Source: a virus
IMG/VR virus record: IMGVR_UViG_3300010400_000002
Coordinates: 1-64,000 of that record
Strand: one strand, 5' to 3'
DNA length: 64,000 nt
In this document: positions 20,865-56,852 of the stretch, in pieces
Numbering within the stretch: position 1 is the stretch's first letter
Layout of the letters: the number at the start of each line of letters is the position of its first letter
Notes under the pieces: generated by a model
Seen by the model: only the letters and a program-made list of their open reading frames with translations
The model's database searches: none
What the model was told of the DNA's origin: nothing
Position numbers and translations under genes: made by a program

Positions 20865-23800
20865 TTGCCCTTCAAGAAAAATATAGCGACCAACACTTTT
20901 ACCCTTGGAATGCGCCAAGATCGGACGGTATTTGCACAAGATCGTCGCTCTTATCGCTCGGCACTAAATGGTAACATCATTTTCTCCGGGGCTGGTGATG
21001 CACAGTACTGTAATGAACCGGGTACTACACTACTCGATAACTCCGTTCCAGATGGATACTATATTGTAGGCAGCAAAGAAATACGGGATAAAACTGTAAT
21101 CATGTCCACCAATGATACCTTCAGCGAGATTGGATTATTGGAGTTGGATGTGACGGGAACGGTGGCTACCTACACAACTTTATTCAATGATGAATTTGAT
21201 CCCAATGGTGATAAACTAAATTTCGCCTCACAGGATTTTATCTTTCCTGCAGAGTCATGTTTCGAAACCATTGACAAGAACAGGGTCTATTGGCTCGAAC
21301 CGAACAATGAACCCAGGTGCTTCAACACACGGTTAGGAGATCAAGAAGTTTCACCTGAGTTCATTGATGGTTCCTATACTCCGCTTATCGCCACAGGAAA
21401 GTATCCTCATTTTTATTCAGTCCATTCCATGTCACTACAGGCAGATTTTAAAATGGGGAGATTGAAATTAAAAAACACAACGGCGGGAGGCTCATTAAAA
21501 ACTGGGATGTATGAATTGTGTTATCGTCCGGTTACAAGAGATGGATATGCGCCGCCGTGGACTCCATTGACGCGACACTTCTTTGTTACTCTCGACCCTA
21601 CTATTCCTGATCCGCTTACCAACTATCATTACCGTTCTATGTATGCTTCAAATGTGATGACCAACAAAGGTTACACATTTACGATTCATGGTGTAGATAC
21701 ACGGTTCTATCAGTTGGAAGTAGCGTATGTGTATAGCACCGACAAAGATGTAACGCAGGAAGCAAGCATTTTCTACCGTGAAAAAATTGATCCGGCACTC
21801 ACTGATGTTGACGTTGTATTTTCTTCTACTACTGGCATCGCTGTTTCATTCGCTGAATTTAATAGATACATTGTTCCGATTCGAAGAGGTAAGGCAATAG
21901 GGCAAAAAGATAAGCGACTGTGGGTAGGTGCGCCGGAAACTTACGGACCGTTCGAACTGGATTTATCAGGAGTAACAATTGCTCCGTTTATCCGTGAGAT
22001 GACTGTTGACACTCGCGAAGGCGCAACAACATTGCCGCTTACTAATATGAGTCCTACATCGAACGGAACCATTTCTATCGAGTCATATAAAAATAATGTG
22101 GGCGCGGCAGTCAATGAATCGTATGCAGTAATTGATGACTTTCCGAATTACAAAGGAGTACAGGGGGAACATTTACTTGCCTCGTATTGGGGTGGAGAAA
22201 CATATCCCCTATCGGTAGTAGTTTTTGATTTAAAGGGGAATCCATTTTATGCACAGCATATCATTGACTACACTTTTCCTAACCGTTATGACGATCCGTC
22301 GTATCACCTGATGACAACCATTGACGGAAAAATCAATATCATGGGAATGAAAATCTCAGGTATTGATTTGACCGACATATTATATGATGCGGATGGAAAA
22401 TTACAAGTAAGCGGTATTGCGATATGCCGTGGAAAAAGAATTCCGCAAACTCTCTTTCAGGGAGTGATACTTCCGGCAACGATTGAAGATAACCCTGATG
22501 CCACACATCCTATTGAACATACGAGTAACGACTTTCACGGTGCCGGTGCAGGCTTCGCCGATTCACTGAAGTATTGGGGGGGGGCAAGTATAGGGCAACA
22601 GATTAATTCACGTCCCTACACTTCGATGATTTATGCACCTGATATTTTGTTCGGGCGCAACATATATGAAGGAACAAGTCAGGATGACGTGAACGAAGAA
22701 ACCGATCAGCTTGAGTTGGTATCATTGTATGACTGTCCCTTTCAGGATAGCATCTATCCACGCACCATTGACCTGAACCCGGGACTCTCTGGCGGCATTG
22801 ATGGACTCGAAAAATTCTATACCAAGAATTATGAACTCAATGTTGACAACAAAAATTTCGAGTACGGATCAAAGTCACGTATAAAAAGATTACTGACGAT
22901 AGAGACCTTTAAAGAACAGGACACTGAATGGGATCACTACGATCAGGATGACCCTGATTTATTTTTCACCGACGACTCCAACTTCGACCCGCAAGATGCT
23001 TCAGGCTTTCCGAATATGCACTCACGCGGGGTAACATTATCGTGGCTGATTAAGAACAAAGACTTTAAGAATACCACGTACATGCCTTCTGACACGACTG
23101 GAGTAAATATTGACCGTCCCCGTTACTACACCGTCAACTACAAAATCAACAACGAAAAATATTTCACATCGCCTACACAGAAGTCACTTGCTGAACGGTT
23201 GTATATTGGAACCGGACATTTTCAACCTATCAATCAGGATGTGCTCGATGATATTGTAGATAGTGACGGACGCTATATTCTCAATGATGTAGAAGTGTGG
23301 GGCGGTGACTGCTACCCGTGGATTTTTGAATTCGTGCGTAACTATCCTGCATTTAGTGGTGACTGCTCAGAAGGTGACTATGCTATTGCGCACGTAGTAC
23401 CATTAGAAAGTTCGATGAACTTCGCACTGCGCCGTGGCAGAAGTTTCGGTGGTGACGGAATACGTAGTGAGCATGAAGCCTGCAATCCTCCACCTGCAGC
23501 ACAGTACTTTCCTAACGGAATTATGGAAGGGCAACCGGAAGAATTTAATCTCAATTCAGTGGTGATGCACGAAGGCAACGTGCAGATGTTTATTGCAAAA
23601 CCAGAAGTGATAGACCCTGAGATCACGCAATTCGACTATCGGTGGTTGTACAGCAACCTGAAAATATTTGGTGAGATCACCGACCAGTACCGCACATTCC
23701 TTACCAGCAACTACGGGGATATGGAACCCAACTACGGAAGGATTGTAGGACGTGGGTATTTATTCGAACAGATGTATTGTCTGCAGGAACGCGCATTCTC

Positions 23801-24974
23801 TATGTTGCGCATCAATCAGATTCGCGCTATCAGCACTGCCGATGGTGAACCTATAGGTACCGGAGTGACGGAAGTGTGGCAGAAGCCGGATGAAAGGAGC
23901 ACCATACACGGAACGGTTTATCCGTATGGAACTATCAATACCGACAAAGCAATCTATTGGGCTGACTACTACAATAAATGCTTCTGCCGTTTTGCCCAAG
24001 ACGGAGTTACCAATATCAGTGATGACTGTGAGATCAAAGAACTGTCGTATGAGCTTCTGAAATTTTTCGATAGTGAGCAGCCGTTAAGTTTGAGTGGCTA
24101 TCAGCACGTAGCGGCGGGATGGGATAGTGTGCGCAACATGATCTACTGGACTGCGACGGAGCAACATGGGCTTGTGCAGGTGAAGAAAACATTAGCGTAC
24201 AGCGCCAATCCGCACGTACATTCTTTCGTGGCAGAAATGGATTTCTACCCTAAGATTTATCTCAACTGCAAAGGATGGTTACTGGATTCAAGATACATTG
24301 ATGATGGCGGCGATGCTACTACACTGTGGTCACACTACACAGGCGAACGCGGAAAATATCATGGTAGTTACAGGCACACAAAAATTGCGTTCATCGTAAA
24401 TGATGTAGCCAATGTGGACAAACTATTTGATAACTCATGGGCTTCATTCAATCCTGATGCGTACGCGTTGCTTGAAAAACTCACGCTCACTACCGATACG
24501 CAGTCGGCAATCATTACACCTATAAATGGAGATTTACGCAGTGATTACCGCAATCTCATCTTCCGCAATGAAACAGTGGCGCGTCCTGCACCCGACAACT
24601 GCGACTACACAATCAATGTAGGTACACCAACATTTCCGTTGAACAATTTCACTTACGTGAAGAACGGTAATACTGTGGTGATAGCGCAGGTCGTGAATCA
24701 GGTTGCATTGCAGGCATTCTTTGTAGCACAAGGATTTGTTGACACCTATCCGATATTCACAATCACGCAAACACCTGATACGTGGACTTCAATTACATGG
24801 AATGGACTGGTTGCTCCGATACTGTTTACACAGTCTGGTTGCGTGTCACCGATACAAAATCATTTGAGTGGTAAGTACCTGATGACAGAATATGATTTCT
24901 TAAATGCAGACAATAAAATCATTCAGTTCACAAGTTGCGATCAAAGTTTTAGATTGATTCCTAAAGTCAGATAA
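20865..24974 (+). CDS. Tail muzzle / stabilisation protein (P22 gp10-like position)
   Basis: 1369 aa; NTFTLGMRQD...YRSALNG N-terminus, VWGGDCY, IYWADYY; TTG start abutting the previous stop. Confidence 0.75.
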   Translation: MPFKKNIATNTFTLGMRQDRTVFAQDRRSYRSALNGNIIFSGAGDAQYCNEPGTTLLDNSVPDGYYIVGSKEIRDKTVIMSTNDTFSEIGLLELDVTGTVATYTTLFNDEFDPNGDKLNFASQDFIFPAESCFETIDKNRVYWLEPNNEPRCFNTRLGDQEVSPEFIDGSYTPLIATGKYPHFYSVHSMSLQADFKMGRLKLKNTTAGGSLKTGMYELCYRPVTRDGYAPPWTPLTRHFFVTLDPTIPDPLTNYHYRSMYASNVMTNKGYTFTIHGVDTRFYQLEVAYVYSTDKDVTQEASIFYREKIDPALTDVDVVFSSTTGIAVSFAEFNRYIVPIRRGKAIGQKDKRLWVGAPETYGPFELDLSGVTIAPFIREMTVDTREGATTLPLTNMSPTSNGTISIESYKNNVGAAVNESYAVIDDFPNYKGVQGEHLLASYWGGETYPLSVVVFDLKGNPFYAQHIIDYTFPNRYDDPSYHLMTTIDGKINIMGMKISGIDLTDILYDADGKLQVSGIAICRGKRIPQTLFQGVILPATIEDNPDATHPIEHTSNDFHGAGAGFADSLKYWGGASIGQQINSRPYTSMIYAPDILFGRNIYEGTSQDDVNEETDQLELVSLYDCPFQDSIYPRTIDLNPGLSGGIDGLEKFYTKNYELNVDNKNFEYGSKSRIKRLLTIETFKEQDTEWDHYDQDDPDLFFTDDSNFDPQDASGFPNMHSRGVTLSWLIKNKDFKNTTYMPSDTTGVNIDRPRYYTVNYKINNEKYFTSPTQKSLAERLYIGTGHFQPINQDVLDDIVDSDGRYILNDVEVWGGDCYPWIFEFVRNYPAFSGDCSEGDYAIAHVVPLESSMNFALRRGRSFGGDGIRSEHEACNPPPAAQYFPNGIMEGQPEEFNLNSVVMHEGNVQMFIAKPEVIDPEITQFDYRWLYSNLKIFGEITDQYRTFLTSNYGDMEPNYGRIVGRGYLFEQMYCLQERAFSMLRINQIRAISTADGEPIGTGVTEVWQKPDERSTIHGTVYPYGTINTDKAIYWADYYNKCFCRFAQDGVTNISDDCEIKELSYELLKFFDSEQPLSLSGYQHVAAGWDSVRNMIYWTATEQHGLVQVKKTLAYSANPHVHSFVAEMDFYPKIYLNCKGWLLDSRYIDDGGDATTLWSHYTGERGKYHGSYRHTKIAFIVNDVANVDKLFDNSWASFNPDAYALLEKLTLTTDTQSAIITPINGDLRSDYRNLIFRNETVARPAPDNCDYTINVGTPTFPLNNFTYVKNGNTVVIAQVVNQVALQAFFVAQGFVDTYPIFTITQTPDTWTSITWNGLVAPILFTQSGCVSPIQNHLSGKYLMTEYDFLNADNKIIQFTSCDQSFRLIPKVR

Positions 24975-24984
24975 CTTTACTGCG

Positions 24985-26712
24985 ATGCTGTTCAACGAAG
25001 AAGTTCCTGAATCACAGTTTGAAATTGACCCGACATATCTGCCGGAGAATAGAAAGTTTCTTGCTTCTATACTTGGATTCAAGCCAACGGGTGAGCGAAA
25101 TAACTGGGGTAATACGATGCGGTTTCTTCCGGTGCCTCTTCTTCCTCCTGGTAGTGGTGCTATTGCATCAAACATCGCCGCTCGTCAATTAGGAACAAAG
25201 AGTAGTGACTATGGACAGCATGTAAAAGAGAACTTGTCGGGTGATATATCAGGAACATTAGTGGGACAGGGTGCAGGTGCGATAGCAGGAGGCATACTAA
25301 GTGGCAATCCGGCTATGGTAGGTAGCGGTGCTGAAAGTGTTTTATCAAATGTACCTAATGCTTTCAATTTTAAAGACGTGAATCTGAATGGTGATTGGGA
25401 AACAAAATATTATCGCAAAGGTGGCATAATCCATTACGATGAAGGAGGCAAAATCATTATGGTCAACGGCAAAAAACCTTGGTGGGATGGTGGTGAGGAC
25501 ATCGCCATGCTCGACAAAAAGACAGGCGCTCATGTAGGTGATGTTTCCTATGGTGAACGTATAATGGACAAGGGAGCAAATAAAAAGATGAAGGAACTGG
25601 CTGATAAAAAATCATTCTATAAACTGGGTAAGTATATCGCTGATGAAATGGAGACGCAGAATGATACCGATAATGAGACAGAGGAATTTAAAGAAGGTGG
25701 TGAGTTGACCGCAGATAAAGCGAAACTGATTCTCAAAGACGGCACTATAAGAGGAAAGAAAATAACTCCGAAACAAAAAAGATTCTTCGGATTCATTGCA
25801 GGTGGTGGGCATCCTTCTCAATATAAAAGTGGTGGTACTATCGAAGTAAAAAAGTATGATACTGGTGGAGACATTCTTTCTCCTGACGGTGATGTGCAAG
25901 ATATATTGAACAATCAAACAGATCAAAATTTATTCAACCTTGTAAAGCAAAATAATTGGGGAATACCTGCTGGCAAAACCTCAGATGCTCCATCCACACC
26001 TTTCAACTGGGATGAACTTGGCGGACCGGAACAACTATTCAACATAGGTCAATTAATCACAGGAATCACCGGAGCAAATGATAAACTTCCTTCCTATCAT
26101 AAACCCGATGAATGGAATCGCTTTCTTCTCGACCAACGTGCTCGTTCCTTATATGGTATGACCAACGCTGAACGTGCCGATCTGCAACGCATGAATGACC
26201 GCGCACTCACGACAGGATTAAATAATGCAAGAGAGATTTCCGGTGGTAACAGTTCCTTCGCAGTAGGGGAAGCGTCGAAGTTTGCAGGTGACTACATGGA
26301 CAGAGCGTTAAAACTTGCAGTGGCAAACGATAAGATCAAGCAAGACGCTACGGCTCGTTATGGCAATACGCTGATGCACGACATTGCTTATGACAAAGAT
26401 GCTTTCGATCAGAAGTATCAGGAAGCATTAATGAAGAAATCTGCGGCTGCCAAACTTGCACATACAGGATTACAGAATACCATTGACCAAGCTGACTACG
26501 AAAAAAATTATGGAAAAAATTCTGTGAACCAACAGTACTTGCAGGCGCAGTTGGATTTGGTGAAGAAACTTACAGGAATGGATTACAGTCAGTTTGTGAG
26601 GGGATTAATTCCTGATGTTGCAACACCGACAACAGATTCTTTCGGCGCACCTATCGCAACAGAATTTACAGGTGGAAGTAATCAGGATTGGTGGAATAGC
26701 GTAAATCAATAA
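24985..26712 (+). CDS. Cargo/ejection protein
   Basis: Gly-rich hydrophobic segment, five [FY]xxGG motifs, helical C-terminus; follows the muzzle gene. Confidence 0.6.
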   Translation: MLFNEEVPESQFEIDPTYLPENRKFLASILGFKPTGERNNWGNTMRFLPVPLLPPGSGAIASNIAARQLGTKSSDYGQHVKENLSGDISGTLVGQGAGAIAGGILSGNPAMVGSGAESVLSNVPNAFNFKDVNLNGDWETKYYRKGGIIHYDEGGKIIMVNGKKPWWDGGEDIAMLDKKTGAHVGDVSYGERIMDKGANKKMKELADKKSFYKLGKYIADEMETQNDTDNETEEFKEGGELTADKAKLILKDGTIRGKKITPKQKRFFGFIAGGGHPSQYKSGGTIEVKKYDTGGDILSPDGDVQDILNNQTDQNLFNLVKQNNWGIPAGKTSDAPSTPFNWDELGGPEQLFNIGQLITGITGANDKLPSYHKPDEWNRFLLDQRARSLYGMTNAERADLQRMNDRALTTGLNNAREISGGNSSFAVGEASKFAGDYMDRALKLAVANDKIKQDATARYGNTLMHDIAYDKDAFDQKYQEALMKKSAAAKLAHTGLQNTIDQADYEKNYGKNSVNQQYLQAQLDLVKKLTGMDYSQFVRGLIPDVATPTTDSFGAPIATEFTGGSNQDWWNSVNQ

Positions 26713-26713
26713 G

Positions 26714-28045
26714 ATGCCAGATTTTGCTTTGTATGATTCTTTAAATGTTGCTCCTCACTTCGATGTGAGGCGGCGCGATGCTATGGCAAACCTGACTATT
26801 GCCAAGCAGATGAAAGATGATGCCATTGCACAGATGCAGGAGCGCATGAAAGCAATGGCATCAATAAGCGATGCACTCAATGAAACTACCGATGCAGAGA
26901 AAACATTTCTTGATCCCGATGCAGAAAGATTGAAGGCAAAAGAAAATGAGATCAGGAGAAAGAATATCATTGAACCATTACAATCAAATAATAATGATGC
27001 GCTGATGTTTGAGATGAGCGGAGGTGATGCGTTCAAAAAAAAATATCACCGTGAGTTGGTTGGTAGTGAAGAATTCAGGAATGGTGTAGAGAATGCACAG
27101 AACTATAAGTTAGGAGTAGCAGCTACTATGAAAGGAGAAATCCTTTCTCCTGTGGAAGTGGAATTCCCGGGTGGGACAAAACAAACTGTTCCGTGGCATG
27201 ACGCTGTTGACCTCTACAATCAGAAGGTGATTAAAAAACTTCCTTTCAAGTCCAGTGCGCCACTTGCTGAATTCGATCCGCTTGACTTCATGAAATTTGA
27301 AATCCCTGATGCTGACATGAAGCACAAAGGATTTGTGGGACTGAAGTATCTCGCTGATCGGATACAGGCAGGAAATCCGAAACTCAACCTAACTGATGAG
27401 CAGGCGATGGAGCAGGCGAAGTTGTATCAGAATAAAGATGTGCAGGGTGCTTCTATGTTTACGTGGGGAAGGAGGTTGCCACACAGTTCGGGATTAAGTT
27501 CCTTCTATGCAAAGCAGGGTGAGCAGCAGCAAAATACATTGCAACGCTATCAGTATTTAAAGCAGGGAATAAAAACCAATCCTGCATTGATAGGACAGAT
27601 TGTGATGAATCAACCATATAACGGAGGTATCATTACCGGCTTTAAAATTCATCCACAAGGTGTTCCCATTAAAGCAATAGGAACAAATAAAATGTTCACG
27701 CCATCCAGCCCAATTGCCTTGATAGAATACACTACTAAAAATAAACATGGAAATTTCATAAAAGAACAAGACGAGATACGATTAACAAAGGAGAATGATT
27801 ATGGTTTCCAGTTGTTCAACAAACTCGCAAACATTAATCGTGAAGGAACAGCGCAGTTCGTAAATCCTGAAGAACTGAATGCTATCTACCAAAGTGATCC
27901 TGAATATTTTGGTGGTGGAAGTACACCGCAGCAAACAGCAACAAAATCAAATGCTCAATATACAGCCACAATGCCTGATGGCTCATTAATTTATTCTCTT
28001 GATGGTCAAAGTTGGGTAGATGAAAAAGGAAATCCTGTACAATAA
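26714..28045 (+). CDS. Cargo/ejection protein
   Basis: 443-aa helical protein; synteny. Confidence 0.5.
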   Translation: MPDFALYDSLNVAPHFDVRRRDAMANLTIAKQMKDDAIAQMQERMKAMASISDALNETTDAEKTFLDPDAERLKAKENEIRRKNIIEPLQSNNNDALMFEMSGGDAFKKKYHRELVGSEEFRNGVENAQNYKLGVAATMKGEILSPVEVEFPGGTKQTVPWHDAVDLYNQKVIKKLPFKSSAPLAEFDPLDFMKFEIPDADMKHKGFVGLKYLADRIQAGNPKLNLTDEQAMEQAKLYQNKDVQGASMFTWGRRLPHSSGLSSFYAKQGEQQQNTLQRYQYLKQGIKTNPALIGQIVMNQPYNGGIITGFKIHPQGVPIKAIGTNKMFTPSSPIALIEYTTKNKHGNFIKEQDEIRLTKENDYGFQLFNKLANINREGTAQFVNPEELNAIYQSDPEYFGGGSTPQQTATKSNAQYTATMPDGSLIYSLDGQSWVDEKGNPVQ

Positions 28046-31000
28046 TGCCAAATGGACAAGATATAAAATTACCAAAGGGAGCGACACTTGTTACTTCGCC
28101 TCCTGTGTCCGGCATTAAATTACCGAAAGGTGCAACGCTTATAAATAATAAATCCGATGAATCACAAGCGAAAGTGCCGCAAGTGCAAGAAGAAAAAAAT
28201 GGTGTAAATGCGCAACCAACAGACGCTACGGCAGCGAATAGCACTACGGAAGTACCGCAAAAAGAAAATAACAGCATTCCAAAAAATTTGGACAATCACA
28301 TTAAGGCGCTTCAAAATGTTAAACAGAATATTAGCATCTACTCGCAATCAATTCCAAAGAATGCTCCATTAACATTACCTACCAAAGAACAAGAGGCGCA
28401 GATAGAACCTGCAATTGTAGCAAGCGGAGGAAGAAATGCTACAATAGAGGATGATGGAAATATTATTGACTATAGTAAGCCAAACCAAATTACTCAGTGG
28501 GCACAATCGCAACTTGAAAAATTAAATGCGATTCCTGCATTTGATGGAACACCAACCGGAATGGGTATTCCTGATGTTACACCAATTACACCAATTATTG
28601 TTGCTGGTAAAGAAGTTGCAAAATCAATACTTGGAAGTATAAGCGGACTGGGCGAAGGAATTCAGCAGGCAACAAAAGGAAGTGAGGATATAAGAATACC
28701 ATCTTCACAAAATAGATTAGCTGCATTGGAACTTCCGGCAGGATTAGTAAAATCAGGATTTAGCGGATTAAGTTTGGTGGTGCCGCAAGTTGCTGCATTT
28801 AATCTTGGAATACAGGAAGCGGGAAATGTACTTCCTGAAAAATGGGTGCAAGCAGCGATGTCACCCGTGTCAACTATTTTGCAAGAAACACATGGCATAG
28901 TAAACTTCAATGGTAAAATTTATGATCTCGGAAATAGCGATGGAGTAAAGGCTGCTGCTGAATTAACTGACCTTGTATGGGATATATTTTTATTCAAGAA
29001 AGCGGAAGGGTTGGGTAAAAAGATAATTCATAATGAAGTTCTCACTCCTATTGAACAAGCTGAGGCGAATAAGATTATTGATGAAGGTATCAAAGATTTT
29101 GGAACACCATTCAAGAAAGAAACTTTAAATAAAATTCCTCCTGAATTACCGGATGCAGTAAAGATAAAAGTTGCTCCATTGATTGAGGAGAAAGAAAAAA
29201 TAATTGATGGAAAGCAAAATATTGATGTTGGATTACATCAGTTAGAAGATCAAAAAATTGCTGACATCAATGAACAAATAATTGACCACGTTGCGCCACA
29301 ACCATTTACTGTTTCTGAATTTGAAGTTCACCCAAAAGAAAACATCTCTGCTGTTGTTGGTAAAGATGCTGAATACAAAGGAAAGATCGGTGTGATCGAA
29401 AAAGACGATGAAGGCAATTTTGTTTTCAATGATGGCAAACGACAACAGATACTTCCGGTAGAAAATAAAGTAGAGCCGACAGAAACAATTTCCGACTCGG
29501 GATTGACAGTAGCCAAAGAGAAAATTTTCAAAGGAGAAATTCCGGTAATCGTGAAGCAAGGTGATGTTGAATATCGTAACAGGAAATACTTTGTATCGTT
29601 CACCAATGATCCGAAAGATGCAACAGGAACGAGAGTATATGAATATACTAAGGACAAAAATTTACTTCCTGTTGGCAAGCCTAAAAAAGTCAATGAAATA
29701 ATTCAACAGTTCAAAGACGAGAATGGAATTGCAACGAAGCAATCACCATTTGAATTTCCGAAGTCAAAAGAAGGAGAACCAACAATCTCAGAGGGTGACG
29801 GGACTGCTAAAGGGGAGTTGCAAGTTCCGTTATCCTCTGAACCTAAAACGACCGACAATGTTTCCGACAAACCACCAGTGTCAGATGAGCGACAACAGGA
29901 GTCAGCACCAATCGGTGAAGCTCCCAGTGCCGAAACCGTCGTTAGCGAAGAGGTTAAAGCGCCGGAGGAAAAAGTAGATGAAGCCAAACAGTTCGCTATT
30001 GACATGGTGAACAATGATCTTGTTGAGCCAGGGAATACTTCTCGAAGTGAAATGACAATCAAGGGTAGTGGCAAGAAAGCAAGTGCGAACATCGAACCAC
30101 GACTTGACTTAGGAATGAGTAGTGCCGATAAGAACAAAGCTATTGCTGACATCAAAAAAGGAAACTACGAAACAGCACCAGCTAAGAAGTTAATTCAAAA
30201 GTTAAGTGAGTTCCATAAGAATGATGCGTTTGAGATGATACGCGGAACGGGTGGTAATGCTGATCGGTTTATGGAACTGACGCTCGAAGAAATGCGTCAT
30301 CAGATTGAGGACATGAAAGAATTCAAGGCAGCCGAAGCCATGAAGGGAATACCGGATGAAGAAGCGCAGGCGATAGAAGATTTTGTCAGACCTTTTGAAG
30401 ATGAGCATGGAAACATTAATTTTGAGGAAGCGATAAAACATCTTGATGAAATCGGATGGACATTACCTGAAGGACATGAGGAAAGAATTTCGGACTTAAT
30501 CAAAAAAATAAAAGATGAAACAGGAAAGCGAGAAGTCCAAAAAGGCGAAGCAAATTCTTCTGGGTCTGTTAGCAGCGAAGCGCCGGAAGGAGTCATCAAA
30601 GATGAAAAGCCCCGCACAAGAGAACAAATCCTCCAAGAGTTAGAGCAGGCTAAAGCGGAGCACGCTACCGCAGAGAGTGACTACAACAAAGCCAAAGATG
30701 CTCTCGACAAAAATCTACAAGGCAAGCAGGGTGATTTACTACAAGGTAATGAGCAGAAGTTGTTTGATGACACTTCTGAAATGAAGTCCAAAGCGGATGC
30801 AGCTAAGAAAACTCTTGACGCTGCAAAAGAAAAACTCGATGCCGCACAGAAGTTGGCTGATGATAATTTACCAGGGCAACAGGAGATACTTAGTCTTTCA
30901 CATGGACTCACCCCTGAGCAAATAAATGAAAGTGCCCAATTCGTTGTTAAGTTTGAACGGGATGAATTACCTACCGATATAAAACTTGCAAAAGAACAAC

Positions 31001-34000
31001 AAGAAAAAGCGTTTGGTCGCGATAAAGAATCTTACAATGAAAAAATTAAGTATTTAGAAGATCGGCTTAAATATCTATCTGATCAGAAAAATTTTGATGC
31101 TGAGGTCGAGAAAATAAAAAGCAAGTATGATCAACCAACTTCCTTAGAACACGAAGCTAAGAATCTCGCTGATAAAATTCGCGGACTGAAAGGAAAACCA
31201 CTAATGGTTCGTGATTCTGTCACTGGTGAAATGGTGGAAGTAAAATCAAAATCATTCTTTGATGAAGCCATTGACATAGTTGCTAACCTCATTGAGAAAG
31301 CAGGCAAGGAACTGAATCACACAAAACTTGGTGATGCAATTGTCGCGGGACTAAAGCATATCCGCTCTTCTGAGTGGTACAAGAAACTTAAATTCTCCGA
31401 AAAGCAGGGTGTGATAAAAGAATTCAAAGCGATGTTTGCTCCGATGCAGGAAGCATTAGTGAAGGGAAGGAAGGAAGATTTGAAGAAGCGAACAGAGAAC
31501 ACTACCGGACAGCGTGACCTTTCTGAAAAAATTAAGACCACGGCGCGACGCATATTCCGACAGAATGAAATTTCATTCAAGCGTGGTGTGGGCGCAGAGA
31601 GAAAGGGACAGTCAATACAGCGCAAAGAATTCGCTGCGGCAATCGCTGACCTACTAAAGTCAAACCAGCTAAAAGGTGAAATAACTCCAGCACAATTCAA
31701 GACTATTATTAAAGCCGCTACCAACATTGGCACAGAAGCGCAACTCAATCGTTTCCTCACATTTTCCGACCGTGTTATCAGTGATGCTAACTATGCACAG
31801 CGCATATCTGACATCTCTGCCACAAGAAAGAAACTTGGCTCACGCGATTATGGTACGTTGACAAATACTGTCAAGTCATTTCTTGCTATCAACCCGCGCA
31901 GTGTTCCTCTCGACAAACTGGATTTGTATGAGCGTGTGATAAATGGGCTTGCACAGAAGCGTGTTCCGTCAGCAACAGAGCTGGTACGCAACTACAATGA
32001 GATTGCAGATGCAGTGCAGAGCAAAACATTTCCGTCTGAAGGTAAGTCGTATAATGATATTGAAGATGGACTTGCCGAACTCACACAGGCGAAATTTGAT
32101 AATGTTGATGACTACATAAAAGCACGTCAGCAATTAGCAGCACTCAATCGGGGGTTACAGAAACTAATTAATGAGGGAAGCATAACACCGGAAGAATCGG
32201 CACAGGCGCAAGACCTGTTTATGCAGACTGGAAAAACATTGGAAGAGCATGCAGCAGAAAATCTTCTTGCCGAAGAAGTGAAACTGAAAGATGAAATGAT
32301 TACAGAAGCGAAAATGATTGCTTCAAATCAGGAGCTTGCCGATTTCACGCCGGAGCAGAAGAAATACATTGAGAAGTTTCAGTCAATTCCTGAATCACTA
32401 CTAAAGCAAATGCCGATTGAAGATGTAGATGCTTATGTGAAGGTGATGGATGGACTGGATGATGGGTTGGTGAATAGTAAAATGTATGAGTTGCTGAATA
32501 AAGCAGGGCTGATGAAAGCCACCAACGAAATCAAAGGACAGGTGCTCGATCAGGCGATCAACAAAACCGGAAAGGCAATAAAGGTATTAGGACAGAAAAT
32601 AGAAGTACCTAATCCGAAGAAACTATTTGGTGATCTAACTACAAGAGGGAAATATTTCTGGGATGAATACTTTGGACTGGGTGGGCAGAAGCCGATATGG
32701 AAAACAATAGTAAGCCCAATCCTTCGCGCCTACAATCACATGCAGTTGGATGCAATTAGGTTGCGGAGTGAATATCATACAGCGTCCAAAAAAGTAAACA
32801 GTGTTGATAAAGCCAAAATATCTATTGTGCTGAATCAACTCGACTACCAAAGTAACCCTATTCGTCTTGAAGATAAAACGGTGCATGACTTTGCCGATCT
32901 TCCAAATCAGGAGAAAGATTATTTCAAAGTGATAAACAATCCTGACAATGCGATGCTCGGACTCAACAATGTCCGTATCGCCGATCAGAAGATTGCGCGT
33001 GAAGCGTATACTGAATTACCAAAGGACTCTTATGGCAACATTGACACGCAGAAGGCACTCGATGAATTGAATGGTGATCCTGACATAAAAGCGTTACTCG
33101 ATACTGTTCAAAAAATAAAAGATGCGCTGGAAGATAAGAACCGTGTAGCAACGGAAAAGCGTGGTGATGTATATGTACCGCGCGAAAATTATCATCCTCG
33201 CATGGTGCGACAGTCACGACCTCGTGGAGGGCTATTCGATACCGAACCACTTACGGCGGAACAGGCAGTAGAATCATTACTCGGTAAGCCTGTAAATAAT
33301 GTGACAGCAAGGGCAGGCTCTACTCATGCACGTACCGACTACCGCTACTATGTTTCTTACAACCTTGACCATGTAATCGGTAACCACATTCAGGATGTGT
33401 TGCGTGATTACCATTTGGGTGATCCCATGAAGCAAAGGTTGGGAGCACTTGGCTCGCTGATGCTATCACAGACGGGAGGAAAGCAAGCAACAGCGAGGGC
33501 ACTGTATGAAGCGATGAAAGATGGTGTGGTGACTTCATTTCATCTCGACAATAAAGTTGCGAATGATGATATGAAGCTGATTGAAAAAGTTCTCTCCACT
33601 ACACGAACACTTGCACTTGCGCGACCTACTCGCTTGATAAATGACTTCGCCTCCAACTTCGTGAGAGAAACATTATCAAGCGGTCAGATTAATCCGGGAC
33701 GACACGAAGCATATAAGCAACTGCTCGACAATTCATATTCATCATTGATGTTTAAAGCGGGCAAGTACGCTGAAGAACGGTATGAAACAAATCAGGGTGC
33801 AATGCGTAAACTCGCTGATGCTATCATTCCGTTTGCTGATACACCGGTTACTCGTGCTGCATTTGCCGGAGCATTCGACACGAGATTCGAAACACTCACA
33901 GGAGAGCGATTTAATCCAGACGAGTATGTTAAATCAGAAGCGTATCGTGATAAATTCGCTGCACAGATTGATGATGCCTCATCCCATGCTGAAGCCTCCA

Positions 34001-35151
34001 TGTCGCAGAAGTTCAATGCTCAAACACCTTTTGCGGCTGCTTCAAAAACGAAATGGACACCACTTGGTTCGCCGAAAGAAAAATATAGTCTGATCTCACA
34101 GGCGCTTGGATTTCTGAATTCATGGAATGCAAATGATACTCGTAATCTTCTTACTAAAGCAAAACAATTGTATGATGGCTCAGGAACGGGGCGTATGGAT
34201 GCGCTCAGAGATATTTCTGGTGTGTTAGCATCTAACTATGTTTACACCACGACTGCTATTCTTGTAGCTAACATCATCAAAAATGGAATTGCTTCAGCAC
34301 TCGATGATGATGAAAAAGGATGGTGGCAGGAGTTGGGTGATGATTTTGAAAAAGGATTTTCAGACACTTTCAATACAGAGACGCAAGGTGAAGTTGGTGT
34401 AGGTACGGTGCTGTCACTTGCTATGGGGCGTTACGGAAATTTGTTCCGTGGAATGTATGCACTCATATCAGGTATTCTCGCCAACGGTCTTAAGGATAAT
34501 CCGGCAGCACTGTCGAAACTCGATGCTGTTAATGGTGGCATGACGCGCACATTCTATGCTGATCCTATAAAGAGCGATAGTCGAACAGTGGATATGTTGC
34601 GACTTATCCCGGCTATGGGAGAAATAGCTGCACAAGTTTATCAAGGTAGTTCCTCAGCAATAGCCTTAACAAACAAGGTGGCTAATGATGGCTTTGAATC
34701 TCTCAACGCTTCTGATAAAGATTTATGGACTACGATTCAGGCTACAAATTATCTGATCGGCGCCGCTTTTCCAAATCCTATCTCTCCTGAGTTTCATACG
34801 GAGTCACGACGCATTGCATCTGCTGTCATTCAGGATGAAAAGAATGATCGTATGAGAGCAATCGGTGTGTACGACATTTATGAAAAGGCAAAAGCCAATG
34901 AACTTATTCCACCCATTGCGCCAAATACCGTTACTATTGATGGAGAGAAACGAACACTGACTTACAAGGAACATGAAGAATTTAATGACCTTGTGATGAA
35001 GTACCGGAAAGAATGGGTTGATGACCTTCGCAAAAATGATCCTGAATTTAAGAAGGCACCACAGAAAGAAAAGATCAAAATGATTAAATCAGCTTACGCG
35101 AGTGGATATAATGAGGCTAAAGATGAATTTTTTAACACAGAAGAAAAATAA
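28045..35151 (+). CDS. Very large virion-associated (ejection/polyvalent) protein
   Basis: 2368 aa, mostly helical/coiled-coil, in the cargo locus; no RNA-polymerase catalytic motif recognised. Confidence 0.6.
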   Translation: MPNGQDIKLPKGATLVTSPPVSGIKLPKGATLINNKSDESQAKVPQVQEEKNGVNAQPTDATAANSTTEVPQKENNSIPKNLDNHIKALQNVKQNISIYSQSIPKNAPLTLPTKEQEAQIEPAIVASGGRNATIEDDGNIIDYSKPNQITQWAQSQLEKLNAIPAFDGTPTGMGIPDVTPITPIIVAGKEVAKSILGSISGLGEGIQQATKGSEDIRIPSSQNRLAALELPAGLVKSGFSGLSLVVPQVAAFNLGIQEAGNVLPEKWVQAAMSPVSTILQETHGIVNFNGKIYDLGNSDGVKAAAELTDLVWDIFLFKKAEGLGKKIIHNEVLTPIEQAEANKIIDEGIKDFGTPFKKETLNKIPPELPDAVKIKVAPLIEEKEKIIDGKQNIDVGLHQLEDQKIADINEQIIDHVAPQPFTVSEFEVHPKENISAVVGKDAEYKGKIGVIEKDDEGNFVFNDGKRQQILPVENKVEPTETISDSGLTVAKEKIFKGEIPVIVKQGDVEYRNRKYFVSFTNDPKDATGTRVYEYTKDKNLLPVGKPKKVNEIIQQFKDENGIATKQSPFEFPKSKEGEPTISEGDGTAKGELQVPLSSEPKTTDNVSDKPPVSDERQQESAPIGEAPSAETVVSEEVKAPEEKVDEAKQFAIDMVNNDLVEPGNTSRSEMTIKGSGKKASANIEPRLDLGMSSADKNKAIADIKKGNYETAPAKKLIQKLSEFHKNDAFEMIRGTGGNADRFMELTLEEMRHQIEDMKEFKAAEAMKGIPDEEAQAIEDFVRPFEDEHGNINFEEAIKHLDEIGWTLPEGHEERISDLIKKIKDETGKREVQKGEANSSGSVSSEAPEGVIKDEKPRTREQILQELEQAKAEHATAESDYNKAKDALDKNLQGKQGDLLQGNEQKLFDDTSEMKSKADAAKKTLDAAKEKLDAAQKLADDNLPGQQEILSLSHGLTPEQINESAQFVVKFERDELPTDIKLAKEQQEKAFGRDKESYNEKIKYLEDRLKYLSDQKNFDAEVEKIKSKYDQPTSLEHEAKNLADKIRGLKGKPLMVRDSVTGEMVEVKSKSFFDEAIDIVANLIEKAGKELNHTKLGDAIVAGLKHIRSSEWYKKLKFSEKQGVIKEFKAMFAPMQEALVKGRKEDLKKRTENTTGQRDLSEKIKTTARRIFRQNEISFKRGVGAERKGQSIQRKEFAAAIADLLKSNQLKGEITPAQFKTIIKAATNIGTEAQLNRFLTFSDRVISDANYAQRISDISATRKKLGSRDYGTLTNTVKSFLAINPRSVPLDKLDLYERVINGLAQKRVPSATELVRNYNEIADAVQSKTFPSEGKSYNDIEDGLAELTQAKFDNVDDYIKARQQLAALNRGLQKLINEGSITPEESAQAQDLFMQTGKTLEEHAAENLLAEEVKLKDEMITEAKMIASNQELADFTPEQKKYIEKFQSIPESLLKQMPIEDVDAYVKVMDGLDDGLVNSKMYELLNKAGLMKATNEIKGQVLDQAINKTGKAIKVLGQKIEVPNPKKLFGDLTTRGKYFWDEYFGLGGQKPIWKTIVSPILRAYNHMQLDAIRLRSEYHTASKKVNSVDKAKISIVLNQLDYQSNPIRLEDKTVHDFADLPNQEKDYFKVINNPDNAMLGLNNVRIADQKIAREAYTELPKDSYGNIDTQKALDELNGDPDIKALLDTVQKIKDALEDKNRVATEKRGDVYVPRENYHPRMVRQSRPRGGLFDTEPLTAEQAVESLLGKPVNNVTARAGSTHARTDYRYYVSYNLDHVIGNHIQDVLRDYHLGDPMKQRLGALGSLMLSQTGGKQATARALYEAMKDGVVTSFHLDNKVANDDMKLIEKVLSTTRTLALARPTRLINDFASNFVRETLSSGQINPGRHEAYKQLLDNSYSSLMFKAGKYAEERYETNQGAMRKLADAIIPFADTPVTRAAFAGAFDTRFETLTGERFNPDEYVKSEAYRDKFAAQIDDASSHAEASMSQKFNAQTPFAAASKTKWTPLGSPKEKYSLISQALGFLNSWNANDTRNLLTKAKQLYDGSGTGRMDALRDISGVLASNYVYTTTAILVANIIKNGIASALDDDEKGWWQELGDDFEKGFSDTFNTETQGEVGVGTVLSLAMGRYGNLFRGMYALISGILANGLKDNPAALSKLDAVNGGMTRTFYADPIKSDSRTVDMLRLIPAMGEIAAQVYQGSSSAIALTNKVANDGFESLNASDKDLWTTIQATNYLIGAAFPNPISPEFHTESRRIASAVIQDEKNDRMRAIGVYDIYEKAKANELIPPIAPNTVTIDGEKRTLTYKEHEEFNDLVMKYRKEWVDDLRKNDPEFKKAPQKEKIKMIKSAYASGYNEAKDEFFNTEEK

Positions 35152-47115: not shown

Positions 47116-47487
47116 ATGGAGAAAGAAAACATCATCATTCACGTTCACAATGAAGGAATCATTGAGATAGGAATGATGTTGCAGAAGATTCTCCACTCAC
47201 AAGAAATTATTCTTCAAACTCTAAAACAAATTCAAATGACAAACGAAGAACTCAAAAAAGGACTCGATGATGTAAAAGCTACTCTCGACAGTATCGGTAC
47301 AGAGGTTGACAAAGTTGCAACCGAAACCAACACATTGAATTCAAAGATCGCTGATCTCGAAACTCAAATCGGGAATCTCGGTACTGTACCACAAGAATTA
47401 CAGGATGCTTTCAATGCGGTAAAAGATCAAGCCGGTGTTGTTGCATCTAAGGTTCAGGCGGTGGATGCTCTTGTGCCTGACGCGTAA
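47116..47487 (+). CDS. Coiled-coil protein
   Basis: Heptad-rich; last gene of the + strand block. Confidence 0.6.
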   Translation: MEKENIIIHVHNEGIIEIGMMLQKILHSQEIILQTLKQIQMTNEELKKGLDDVKATLDSIGTEVDKVATETNTLNSKIADLETQIGNLGTVPQELQDAFNAVKDQAGVVASKVQAVDALVPDA

Positions 47488-47608: not shown

Positions 47609-47641
47609 AAAAAAAATGGATGATGTTTAGTCACCCATTTT
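47609..47641 (-). terminator. Intrinsic terminator ending the RAMP-array transcript
   Basis: On -: AAAAUGGGUGA-CUAAACA-UCAUCCA-U8; the G-U pair and U8 tract work only on the - strand. Confidence 0.8.
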
Positions 47642-48241
47642 AAACAGTACCATAGCGGTGCGAACCCAACCATGCCAGCGCCTAACAGAACCATATCCAA
47701 CAATACCGAGCCTTACACGATCACACCATACCGGCTTTCCAGCCCGTTCCATGCCATACCTCTACTTACATCAGCCAACCATACAGGACTAAAGCAAGCC
47801 ATTGCTAACCTATCCCGACCATACCGACTCTTTCGAGTCCGTACCCAACCGAACCATACCGAACACAAGCGAACCGCGCCGACGCCGAAGCTAACAATAC
47901 CATTCCCGATACTACCGCGCTCGACATAAGCTGACCAATCCATACCAAACCGGAGATAATTTTCCCGTTCCTTACCATACTCAACCGAACATTACCTAAG
48001 CCAGCCGTACCCTGCATAACCGAAGCTGACCGAACCGACTGAAATTAATCAGTCCGTACCACGCCGTACACTACCATTCCAAACAAAATTGAACCGTATC
48101 CCGCCATGCCGAATCGAACCTTACCACAACACACGGAACACCACCATGCACTACCATACCGGCTTTTAAAAAGCCCGCACCAAACCAAAACTCAGCTAAC
48201 CGGACAAAACCGAACTCCACATAACCCCGCCCCGGCAAACC
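47642..48241 (-). ncRNA. GGY-NN pentamer array: six putative guide-RNA units separated by five hairpins
   Basis: About 104 in-register pentamers (55 exact GGT/GGC by manual count; two 6-nt units); hairpins at 47733-47744, 47826-47839, 47952-47965, 48037-48054, 48161-48175. Confidence 0.85.
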
Positions 48242-48246
48242 GGAAT

Positions 48247-48873
48247 TTAATCTTCAATGACATCATAATTCTTAATAGCAAATCTTCCATATGACGGTCT
48301 GAAATCTCCAACGCCGCACAATCTTCCTGCCTGTACCAACGTGTCAATAAACAATGCCACATCAATATACTCAGGCAACTGAATCATGAATTGACATTTG
48401 CAAGTCCATCCTGATTTTAATGCAGGACGAGTGCGATTAATGCCTGACCGCTGAATAACAACACGCCGACGATCTTCATAATCCCATTCTTTCTTTCCTA
48501 AAGAGCAAAGTGGAGTTAATGAGATTACTCCTGCTTTGAATAAGTCCATTGCCGACTTACGAGGCGAGCGAGGGTCTTGTTTGAACTTTGATGCAGCGAT
48601 ACAACTCATGCGAAAATATTCACCCGGGATACAGAGAAATCCTTTATCATCCCGATAGACGTAGCTTTCGAGATCATCAGTTTTTTTAGCAGCAGAATTT
48701 TTTTTCGCTTTCGCTTTTTCATCTACTGCCTCTGCATTCCATCGGTGAAACAGCATGTCGGCTGTACCTTGAAATGTTACTTCAATCATGAACGGTTCTG
48801 AATGTTCAATGACTTTCTTTGCGCCGTTTGTTGGCTCACTCACATTCTTAGCGAGTGTTTTTGCTGTACTCAT
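48247..48873 (-). CDS. Stand-alone RAMP/Cas7-like RNA-binding protein
   Basis: IEVTFQGTADMLFH (beta-1), LCIPGEYFRMSC (cf. IPGSSLKG of Csm3/Cmr4-type RAMPs), RTRP, C-terminal Gly-rich loop AGRLCGVGDFRPSYGRF. Confidence 0.8.
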   Translation of the reverse strand: MSTAKTLAKNVSEPTNGAKKVIEHSEPFMIEVTFQGTADMLFHRWNAEAVDEKAKAKKNSAAKKTDDLESYVYRDDKGFLCIPGEYFRMSCIAASKFKQDPRSPRKSAMDLFKAGVISLTPLCSLGKKEWDYEDRRRVVIQRSGINRTRPALKSGWTCKCQFMIQLPEYIDVALFIDTLVQAGRLCGVGDFRPSYGRFAIKNYDVIED

Positions 48874-48889
48874 AATTATGAAATTAAAA

Positions 48890-48991
48890 AGCCCCTACGA
48901 CAAATGGTTCAAACCTTCACCGTTAGGAGAAAGTACATCTGCTTTCAGGGCTGTTTGGAAATGTCGTGATTGACACGATGAAAGTTTGAAC
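48890..48991 (-). promoter_or_regulatory. Structured 5' leader of the RAMP gene
   Basis: 16-bp stem GUUCAAACUUUCAUCG/CGGUGAAGGUUUGAAC plus alternative pairings AGCCCU/GGGGCU and ACGACA/UGUCGU. Confidence 0.7.
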
Positions 48992-48995
48992 GAGG

Positions 48996-49028
48996 CAAAT
49001 ATAAGGTGAGGGTATTACTAAATGCAAA
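48996..49028 (-). promoter_or_regulatory. Bacteroidota primary-sigma promoter for the RAMP-array unit
   Basis: TTTG (49028-49025), 21-nt spacer, TATATTTG (49003-48996); matches TTTG-N19-21-TAnnTTTG. Confidence 0.75.
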
Positions 49029-49135
49029 TCAGGATATAAACATTCGATTCACATAAATTGTCCTTTGTCAATCCATAGTGGCTTGTCGCCGTTCATCATG
49101 GAAAGATACTTCTGCTTAATTTTTTTGGCTCTCAT

Positions 49136-49732
49136 TTATATTTCAATTGAGTTATTCACTTCATTGCCTAATAAATCCCATCCCTCATATTCATAATTAG
49201 GGAACATTCCTTCACGTTCCCTTGCGAATAACTCCAATCGTTTAGGCTCTTCGAAAACCCTGTCAGTGACCTTCATTATCAATTCGCGGAAGTAATGCGG
49301 TTTCTGTGAGTGCTTACCAACTTTCTGTTCGTGAAGATCACCGAAGTCAAATTCCGAAGCATAGAAATTACAGGTTTGTTCTCTGAAGGCAGTAACATTT
49401 CCTTTAATTCCTAATAGCAGATGTTCGCATTGACCACGAAACCAATATCCCATTCCCTGACTCATTACCTTTCGCCACGTCATCATTGTCTTATACTTAA
49501 ATCCCCACGCAGCCATTACCTCAAAGGCTTCCGGCAATAGCGGAACGGTTGCCCCTAAGAACAACACCGAATTTTTCTCAGAAGGAATTTGCATTGCCTT
49601 GATATCATCAAGCGGCATCGTTTCATATTTTGTATGAGCGCCACTTCCTTCCGGCTGATCTCCATTAGTTCGCCCTGTCTTTTTATTCTCGTAAGACCAC
49701 GGCGGATCTGCGTAAATGACATTGTACTTCAT
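49136..49732 (-). CDS. MT-A70 family adenine methyltransferase
   Basis: YNVIYADPPW, AWGFKY, MGYWFRGQCEHLLLG, HSQKP, LELFAR. Confidence 0.9.
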   Translation of the reverse strand: MKYNVIYADPPWSYENKKTGRTNGDQPEGSGAHTKYETMPLDDIKAMQIPSEKNSVLFLGATVPLLPEAFEVMAAWGFKYKTMMTWRKVMSQGMGYWFRGQCEHLLLGIKGNVTAFREQTCNFYASEFDFGDLHEQKVGKHSQKPHYFRELIMKVTDRVFEEPKRLELFAREREGMFPNYEYEGWDLLGNEVNNSIEI

Positions 49733-55802: not shown

Positions 55803-56762
55803 TTATCGTGTTCTTATGAAGTTTTCCAATTCCTCAATATCCCCCTTCTCCCGTGTAACCATCTCCTTATATTTCTCAACATCAATCTGCTGCTGTATGT
55901 GAGATTCGATAATCGAAGTAAGAACCTGGGGCTTCAGCGCATCTACTTCCCAGCAGGTCTTTCCAAATTTAGCAATGTACTTATCACTTCGTGAATCAGT
56001 AAGTTTCGTAGGGTTAGGTGGCAGTTTGTATTTTTTGATTTGCTGCATCGTCAAACCAATCTGGATGATTTGAAAAATGTCAGAAGCAACCAAATGGTAC
56101 TCTCCCTGCTCAATCATGAAAGTTAATCGTTCACTTATATCACGAACCATATCTAACCCACTTGGGTCGTGATCTCCAAAATAAAGAATCGTAGTCATCC
56201 CTTCGTGAAGGCTGTTATTTAAAATGCGATTGTAGGCACTATACATCGCACTGGAAGAACTGTAACCTTTGTTAATGATTAGTTGGATGTGATACTTTTC
56301 GGTACTGCGTCGTAGTATTCCTGCAAGTGCATCTTTCTCGCTCCAAAGTTCAACGTGATTTGATTGTCCTTCTTGTCGGTCTAACCTATATTGGTCAATC
56401 GTGTCCTGTAACGCATGTTCAACACTGTTAACCGAATAAGGAATGTACGGTACTCTTCCGCGATCTTCAATAGCACCCCAATCAATGGTTCCACTGTAAC
56501 GGCAATCATCAACAATATCTCCCAATTTTTTATACGCTGTGATATGGTTTATGAATCCTTCTACGTGACCTACGAATTGATAATGAAGCTGCCGGAGAGT
56601 TAGAATATAACCTTCTGCTGCGTACTCATCTACGATGGATATTATGTTGGCTACAACATCCTCCTTTCTTGTGCGCCACCATTTGATACTGCCGTCATCA
56701 AATTTGCAGCATACATTTATAGCGCCCGTTAATTTCCTATCTTCAAATTTCTCTTTAGCCAT
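55803..56762 (-). CDS. TopoVI-A/Spo11-like winged-helix plus Toprim protein
   Basis: LTLRQLHYQ, ELWSEKDAL, GYSS, YFGDHDPSGLDM, WEVDAL; start MAKEKF at 56762 (the longer ORF overlaps the tRNA-like gene). Confidence 0.8.
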   Translation of the reverse strand: MAKEKFEDRKLTGAINVCCKFDDGSIKWWRTRKEDVVANIISIVDEYAAEGYILTLRQLHYQFVGHVEGFINHITAYKKLGDIVDDCRYSGTIDWGAIEDRGRVPYIPYSVNSVEHALQDTIDQYRLDRQEGQSNHVELWSEKDALAGILRRSTEKYHIQLIINKGYSSSSAMYSAYNRILNNSLHEGMTTILYFGDHDPSGLDMVRDISERLTFMIEQGEYHLVASDIFQIIQIGLTMQQIKKYKLPPNPTKLTDSRSDKYIAKFGKTCWEVDALKPQVLTSIIESHIQQQIDVEKYKEMVTREKGDIEELENFIRTR

Positions 56763-56766
56763 TTCG

Positions 56767-56852
56767 AAGCGAAGGGGGAACTCGAATCCCCGACCTATGC
56801 AGACCCACTCCACGTAGAAACTGCGTCGCTCTACCAACTGAGCTACTTCGCT
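56767..56852 (-). tRNA. tRNA-like gene with an enlarged anticodon arm (anticodon uncertain; UCU/Arg in the standard register)
   Basis: Acceptor AGCGAAG/CUUCGCU, D-arm GCUC-AGUUGGUA-GAGC, T-arm GGGGA-UUCGAGU-UCCCC; 18-nt anticodon loop; no encoded CCA. Confidence 0.7.

Follow-up and report, generated by a model that had tools for sequence, protein, structure and literature searches.

A pentamer guide array beside a minimal RAMP gene in a 78-kb soil-metagenome phage: very probably a VIPR system

VIPR (Viral Interference Programmable Repeat) is a CRISPR-like class first described in 2026. In its discovery preprint (bioRxiv 10.64898/2026.04.26.720920), it consists of a phage-borne minimal RAMP, Vipr, and of vrRNAs with 9-16 YNNGG units followed by a structured tail. 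The preprint states that the NN dinucleotides recognize double-stranded DNA by base pairing according to a "1 nt skip rule", the skipped base usually being the codon wobble; that the natural targets lie in satellites and prophages and the effect is a CRISPRi-like repression; that there are seven VIPR types, with vap accessory genes; and that internal degeneracy is frequent in working vrRNAs. In the structural work (10.64898/2026.04.26.720927), each unit is bound by one Vipr protomer, with GGY flipped out and held by H17, R138, D177, W178 and R179, while the NN of SUSP1 take part in a gapped hybrid that lies inside the R-loop triplex seen by cryo-EM. Codon-periodic targeting is reported to prevent escape (10.64898/2026.10.15.759431).

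The locus studied here was found in a stretch of 64,000 nucleotides, called the window below (positions 1 to 64,000 of IMG/VR record IMGVR_UViG_3300010400_000002), which belongs to an assembly of one phage contig of 78,308 bp. The sole public run containing the sequence is a soil-metagenome DNA run, which is probably its source, and the phage encodes a terminase with a distant resemblance to crAss-like phage terminases. Among the other contents of the window, a row of very large ORFs (1369, 575, 443 and 2368 aa) on the plus strand at 20865-35151 presumably encodes structural or injected proteins. At 56766-56852 on the minus strand ARAGORN calls a tRNA-like gene, to which it assigns no identity; its anticodon has four bases (tcta), and the gene overlaps the end of a 344-aa ORF (55803-56837).

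When compared with the type II reference, the VIPR system of Escherichia phage SUSP1, the present locus shares a ~20-kDa single-RRM RAMP with a G-loop and a thumb, GGY-NN guide RNAs beside the gene on its strand, a 1-nt skip on the codon wobble, targets in mobile elements and the lack of self-targeting. The differences are that there is no vap between vipr and the array and no upstream vrRNA, that the tracts have 13-22 units compared with 9-16, that the tails are short variable hairpins closed by GUAC/GUAU terminal units instead of a conserved pseudoknot, and that the host is probably a member of Bacteroidota, the source being a soil metagenome. The RAMP fold is also that of Cas7 in class 1 CRISPR-Cas (Csm3, type VII Cas7), and the protein would likewise form a multimer along the guide RNA with a thumb flipping bases periodically, a behavior established for Cas7 and published for Vipr. 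On the other hand, the locus has no repeat-spacer array and no other cas genes, its guides have 3 displaced bases in each 5-nt period (1 in 6 nt in class 1 systems), its guide information is noncontiguous, and its protein is not detected by Cas7 profiles. A check for class 1 membership found the neighbors to be phage DNA-metabolism and structural genes. TRAP, the trp RNA-binding attenuation protein, which binds triplets 2-3 nt apart, is similar in its constant triplets, 5-nt period and multimeric protein, but its fold is unrelated, and in our case it is the spacers, not the triplets, that carry information matching other genes.

The vipr gene and its protein

The gene on the minus strand at 48247-48873 encodes a protein of 208 aa (P0001). 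The AF2 model, built on 69 homologs, has a pLDDT of 92.6, and its top PDB matches in Foldseek are Csm3, the Cas7 of type III-A, and type VII Cas7 (E ~1e-7, TM ~0.5). As modeled, P0001 folds as a Cas7/Csm3-like RAMP, namely a small single-RRM protein with a glycine-rich loop and a thumb as described for Vipr. The profile of the 69 homologs matches the Vipr ORF of phage SUSP1 (KT454805.2, 28495-29070, minus strand) with an E value of 2.3e-20 over positions 26-205 of 212. Pairwise BLASTP between P0001 and SUSP1 Vipr gives an E value of 1e-9, with ~32% identity across the C-terminal 74 residues. The G-loop reads GVGDFRPSYGRF in P0001 and GVGDWRPRFGRF in SUSP1.

The residues that contact GGY in SUSP1 Vipr have counterparts here. 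In the BLASTP alignment R138, D177, W178 and R179 are aligned with R149, D190, F191 and R192 of P0001, so that an aromatic residue is retained at the one changed position, and R149, D190 and R192 are each at least 90% conserved in the family alignment. H17 lies outside the BLASTP alignment and was paired with H43 by eye from the two sequences. Pfam, NCBIfam and PADLOC hold no family for P0001, and no Cas7 profile matches it; PHROG assigns it to phrog_4652, function unknown.

Homologs of P0001 are numerous, with more than 6,600 in a word-indexed search and ~1,000 representative clusters in an exhaustive one. GGY-NN arrays were found on the strand of the gene, upstream or downstream, in 18 of 19 IMG/VR loci with a homolog, and therefore the pairing of gene and array is conserved; base composition differs widely among these 19 loci. 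The SUSP1 locus itself showed one upstream and three downstream pentamer arrays, in agreement with the publication. The position of the array relative to the gene is variable, since in related contigs arrays lie upstream of vipr (L002-L005, gene at 3001, with up to ~750 nt of array), downstream of it, or past one or more intervening ORFs (L010, 3857-3986; L013, 4381-4450). A tblastn search with Vipr found one phage, the lake phage DSL-LC04. Its homolog (L020 3001-3609; OR003939.1 22429-23046) has 65% identity and is labelled 'helix-turn-helix transcriptional regulator', probably a misannotation.

The interval from vipr to the array contains no ORF, and the upstream neighbors (MT-A70 methylase, HNH and resolvase) are absent from 21 related loci; thus no vap gene was found. 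The VIPR preprint says that the loci 'typically' include vap, so a missing vap does not exclude membership. The MT-A70 family DNA methyltransferase gene (49136-49732, minus strand) is directly upstream of the probable promoter region of vipr.

Anatomy of the pentamer array

The array begins 6 nt past the vipr stop codon, on the same minus strand, and lies between two convergent genes, vipr (48873-48247) and a plus-strand coiled-coil phage gene ending at 47487. A parse in a 5-nt register, in which single extra bases are allowed at 47682 and 47886, resolves 47647-48241 into 103 GGY-NN pentamers in six tracts. On the plus strand the constant positions 3-5 are A in 76%, C in 78% and C in 78% of the 103 units, and all 16 dinucleotides are present at the NN position. 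The exact ACC occurs in 43 of the 103 pentamers and RCC, which is GGY on the RNA, in 53. The GGY period-5 score over ten units reaches 26/30 solely in the array region on the minus strand; elsewhere in the 78,308-bp genome it stays below 25, with a genome mean of 9.1 (sd 2.4). The locus thus has a vrRNA region of tandem YNNGG units in which GGY is conserved and NN is hypervariable, as VIPR is defined. Within the window no Rfam family matched at gathering thresholds, a check for a CRISPR array found no tandem or interspaced repeats, and a blastn search with the array region met no match among 50,697 phage records.

The first-pass annotation had noticed that the NN of the plus strand are asymmetric and had read them as the first two positions of sense codons. 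Our counts agree for GA (16 vs 3 TC) and CA (7 vs 2 TG) and for the 5 TT, and correct AA from 11 to 10. Models of the codon positions were built from 68 long ORFs of the same phage genome. It was found that the 103 NN fit best to sense codon positions 1-2 of these ORFs, by 10 bits over the genome dinucleotides, by 15 bits over codon positions 2-3 and by 30 bits over the antisense of positions 1-2.

The tracts have 13-22 units, are parted by hairpins of 13-19 nt, and the last is followed by a hairpin and U8; two of them are split by a 1-nt register slip. In RNA folding of the minus strand, the short hairpins after five of the tracts are of variable sequence, four of them with z scores of -2.7 to -3.5 and one weak. 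From the 5' end of the RNA they lie at 48161-48176 (-11.8 kcal/mol, z -2.7, with flanking GUGC/GUAU extending the stem), 48037-48055 (-15.0 kcal/mol, z -3.5), 47952-47966 (the weak one, -6.9 kcal/mol, z -1.0), 47826-47840 (-12.4 kcal/mol, z -3.4) and 47733-47745 (-13.0 kcal/mol, z -3.5). They are lengthened by the last unit of one tract (GGWAC) pairing with the first unit of the next (GGUAU), as at 47826-47840, where GUAC of the preceding tract is paired with GUAU of the following one. Neither a conserved tail sequence nor a SUSP1-like pseudoknot was found by RNA folding of the 3' tails of the tracts. At the end of the array, 47609-47641 on the minus strand folds into a terminator-like hairpin with an 11-pair stem and the U8 run; the consensus terminator scan did not call it.

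Upstream of vipr, the intergenic region at 48874-49135 (minus strand), with no pentamer array within it, is the probable promoter region for vipr and the vrRNAs. At 49003-48996 there is a TAnnTTTG motif, which is the -7 consensus of Bacteroidota and may mark the promoter. A sigma-70 consensus scan of 48874-49135 gave nothing above shuffled sequences.

The register is shifted by the single extra bases at 47682 and 47886, each inside a tract. The latter lies just where a perfect 13-unit target match, described below, comes to its end. Such slips may be guide boundaries without a hairpin, and the layout may correspond to the staggered arrays that the VIPR preprint mentions.

Guide matches and the skipped base

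For the target searches, the NN strings of the plus strand were written with one wildcard base between pairs. The search with vr5 (47746-47825, minus strand, 16 units) led to an HTH_17 family. A first seed of its central 9 NN gave 8 matches in IMG/VR that were judged to be chance. A nine-NN seed gave 55 matches in 185,579 species genomes, 32 of which belong to one HTH_17 family of Bacteroidota (ISFSQIGNKIYYRM; PF12728, E 3e-9), and the remaining 23 look like chance with 19-24 of 32 bases. Members of the family match over 25-30 of 32 bases, the best at 30/32, with 28/28 over 14 NN. In Winogradskyella the target gene adjoins a tyrosine integrase with an Arm-DNA-bind_5 domain.

The guide vr1 (48177-48241, minus strand, 13 units), whose NN spell (A/E)KNSYGNDPYPPK, points to DUF2188. 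All 10 IMG/VR matches of its ten-NN seed are to DUF2188 genes (PF09954, E 1e-24) in IMG/VR proviruses, and each is in frame and at the 3' end; these genes encode ~75 aa ending in ...SYGNDPYPPKG, and the best match of the whole guide, at this C-terminus, is 25/26 bases. One seed from the fourth tract gave no match in IMG/VR. The 5' part of this tract, vr4b (47887-47951, minus strand, 13 units), matches DYIIRLARYCNMK in frame with all 26 NN bases, and a ten-NN seed from this part was found in two metagenome contigs carrying one sequence. The target there is a 387-aa BT4734-like_N protein whose gene adjoins a DUF5906/Pox_D5 (D5-type) primase-helicase gene. Nine further units, vr4a (47841-47886, minus strand), follow the slip at 47886, and no target was found for them. 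Beside the perfect vr4b site they match 4-6 of 18 bases, which is chance level, so the slip probably separates two guides.

The weakest of the four assignments is vr3 (47967-48036, minus strand, 14 units), whose probable target is a Peptidase_M78 gene. The gene encodes a Peptidase_M78/IrrE-like protein of 401 aa, and 24 of 28 bases match, in frame, where it has its SLMHELYHVLYDLE (HExxH) site; the match is to one sequence carried by three contigs, one a provirus and two metagenome viral contigs. Outside the seed 6 of 10 bases are matched in this one independent sequence, and seven other seed matches look like chance.

Targets were not found for the other tracts. The seed of vr2 (48056-48160, minus strand, 21 units in the 5-nt parse and possibly more than one guide) had four IMG/VR matches, at a chance level of 21-24 of 42 bases and without extension though 4/4 were in frame, and a 13-NN pattern had none in 401 Flavobacteriaceae genomes. 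The four matches are on E/DVPIDDLTT-like peptides of four viral contigs (L064-L067), the remaining tract being unmatched, and are either chance or a sign of more than one guide in vr2. The last tract, vr6 (47647-47732, minus strand), consists of a 10-unit and a 7-unit block around the slip at 47682; the only two matches of its seed (L068 and L069) do not keep the codon phase and look accidental. Sense is favored over antisense in the three tracts without a target too, by 6.7 to 11.5 bits (7.1 bits in vr2). In all, the array contains at least six and probably eight guide RNAs. No match of the other guides was found in the contigs or 8-kb neighborhoods bearing the vr1, vr3 and vr5 targets, and the best self-matches in the 78-kb phage genome outside the array cover 57-73% of NN bases, the same as with shuffled guides.

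The spacing of the matches was examined in a single sample of 121 Flavobacteriaceae genomes, with the 14 NN of vr5 and at most 3 mismatches allowed. With a 1-nt skip 4 of the 121 genomes were matched, two of them perfectly, one of these two being the center genome that had been chosen beforehand from the earlier seed match. None of the 121 genomes was matched when the skip was set to 0, 2 or 3 nt or when the guide was written backwards. The ten NN of vr1 in reversed order likewise had no match in IMG/VR, compared with 10 in the native order. The four guides match their targets at 86-100% of NN bases, and the threshold for natural VIPR targets is at least 80%.

The skipped base is codon position 3 in the family matches of all four guides (vr1 10/10, vr5 32, vr4b 2, vr3 3). 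Among the 32 vr5 sites there are 31 distinct DNA sequences, in which the wobble string inside the seed takes 29 forms, and the skipped positions are the most variable ones. Codon-like seeds also land in frame by chance, as with vr2, and therefore the frame alone is weak evidence; what counts is that the matches converge on families and extend beyond the seed, and that the controls were empty. The idea of the first-pass annotation, that each RNA pairs 2 nt and skips 1 along the sense strand of a gene so that synonymous mutations are tolerated, is thereby borne out: four guides match in-frame mobile-element genes at 24/28 to 26/26, the excess belongs to the 1-nt gap, and a single vr5 seed covers all 29 wobble strings. 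The protein-like strings it had read from the NN agree with the target peptides wherever these were found (ISFSQIGNKIYYRM, (E)KNSYGNDPYPPK, LMHELYHVLYD-E, DYIIRLARYCNMK). Its suggestion that the terminal NN are structural holds for one end only. The 3'-terminal NN of the RNA mismatches the target in vr1, vr3 and vr5, and the 5'-terminal NN matches it in vr5 and vr4b; thus only the 3' end looks structural.

The targets are placed in mobile-element settings, namely proviruses (vr1, vr3), next to an integrase (vr5) and next to a primase-helicase (vr4b), which is consistent with the competing mobile genetic elements that VIPR is described to attack. Each match falls on a motif conserved throughout a large family, so the genes found may be homologs of the actual targets in the host of the phage, and we do not take the four to be a deliberately broad panel.

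Competing readings and biological meaning

A strictly periodic array with a constant triplet would also be expected of an RNA that binds or titrates a protein at TRAP-like 2-nt spacing, or of a DNA G2N3 quadruplex or i-motif, with no guide role and an NN bias that is only compositional. This was the initial reading and was dropped on the target matches. The NN match real genes at 26/26, 28/28 and 25/26 with one spacing only and empty controls, and the neighboring protein is a RAMP homologous to Vipr, so we give this account hardly any credence. It is somewhat less far-fetched, and still very improbable, that the locus is a decaying or orphan VIPR remnant whose guides spell old targets and which no longer works. 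The degenerate constant parts (43/103 exact ACC, 53/103 RCC), the fact that no vap gene was found and the three tracts without a target are compatible with decay. Nevertheless, the vipr ORF is intact with its contact residues conserved, guides containing degenerate units match over their whole length (30/32 and 26/26), and the VIPR preprint notes frequent internal degeneracy in working vrRNAs (10.64898/2026.04.26.720920).

The strand of the targets bears on another account, in which Vipr and its vrRNAs act mainly as antisense on mRNA, or strictly prefer the coding strand, instead of recognizing double-stranded DNA on either strand. In 4/4 identified targets the vrRNA is complementary to the sense strand, the pooled NN favor sense over antisense by 30 bits, and the untargeted tracts lean the same way (6.7 to 11.5 bits). 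These four targets and the sense-like untargeted tracts hint at a strand preference, but 4/4 on one strand has a probability of ~0.06-0.12 even without any preference. Moreover, the SUSP1 RNP binds double-stranded DNA, with a cryo-EM R-loop triplex, and its silencing works with either strand as target; the residues that contact GGY are also conserved here. We thus hold this account to be improbable, a little less so than a remnant. A broader version is more probable, while still being unlikely: the guides of this clade of Bacteroidota phages may be chosen only against the coding strand, with a particle that acts also or instead on mRNA, combined with a layout that would be undescribed (hairpins closed by the terminal GUAC/GUAU, slips as guide boundaries, no vap).

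The explanation in which we have high confidence is a VIPR system of the 78-kb phage, organized as one minus-strand unit and predicted to silence competing mobile elements. The probable transcription unit would run from vipr (48873-48247) through the guide array (48241-47647) to the hairpin-U8 terminator, with the transcript then processed into guides. By analogy with SUSP1, one Vipr protomer would bind each GGY-NN unit, with GGY flipped out and sequestered and the NN presented, and the NN pairs would engage a DNA strand in steps of two bases, every third target base being skipped. From the SUSP1 work we infer both the assembly of this RNP and that DNA rather than RNA is its target. In the matches found, the guides encode codon positions 1-2 of conserved motifs, and the genes concerned are regulator and replication genes that belong to prophages and integrative elements, so a synonymous change could not break the match. 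The outcome would be a CRISPRi-like silencing of rival mobile elements in what is probably a Bacteroidota host.

The idea of a gapped, codon-based guide is thus valid, but it is already published as VIPR; as the mechanism and its rationale were described there, no new question is opened. What the locus provides is an independent and purely computational confirmation of the 1-nt-skip, wobble-skipping code of VIPR. The clade is remote from the systems of E. coli and Pseudomonas that have been tested, its Vipr having ~32% identity across no more than the C-terminal third. The locus is also compact, no vap gene having been found in it, which suits it for testing, and it puts names to concrete candidate natural targets, the HTH_17, DUF2188, BT4734-like and Peptidase_M78 genes of integrative elements and prophages. 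The picture of warfare between mobile elements would in this way be extended to a soil phage that probably infects Bacteroidota.
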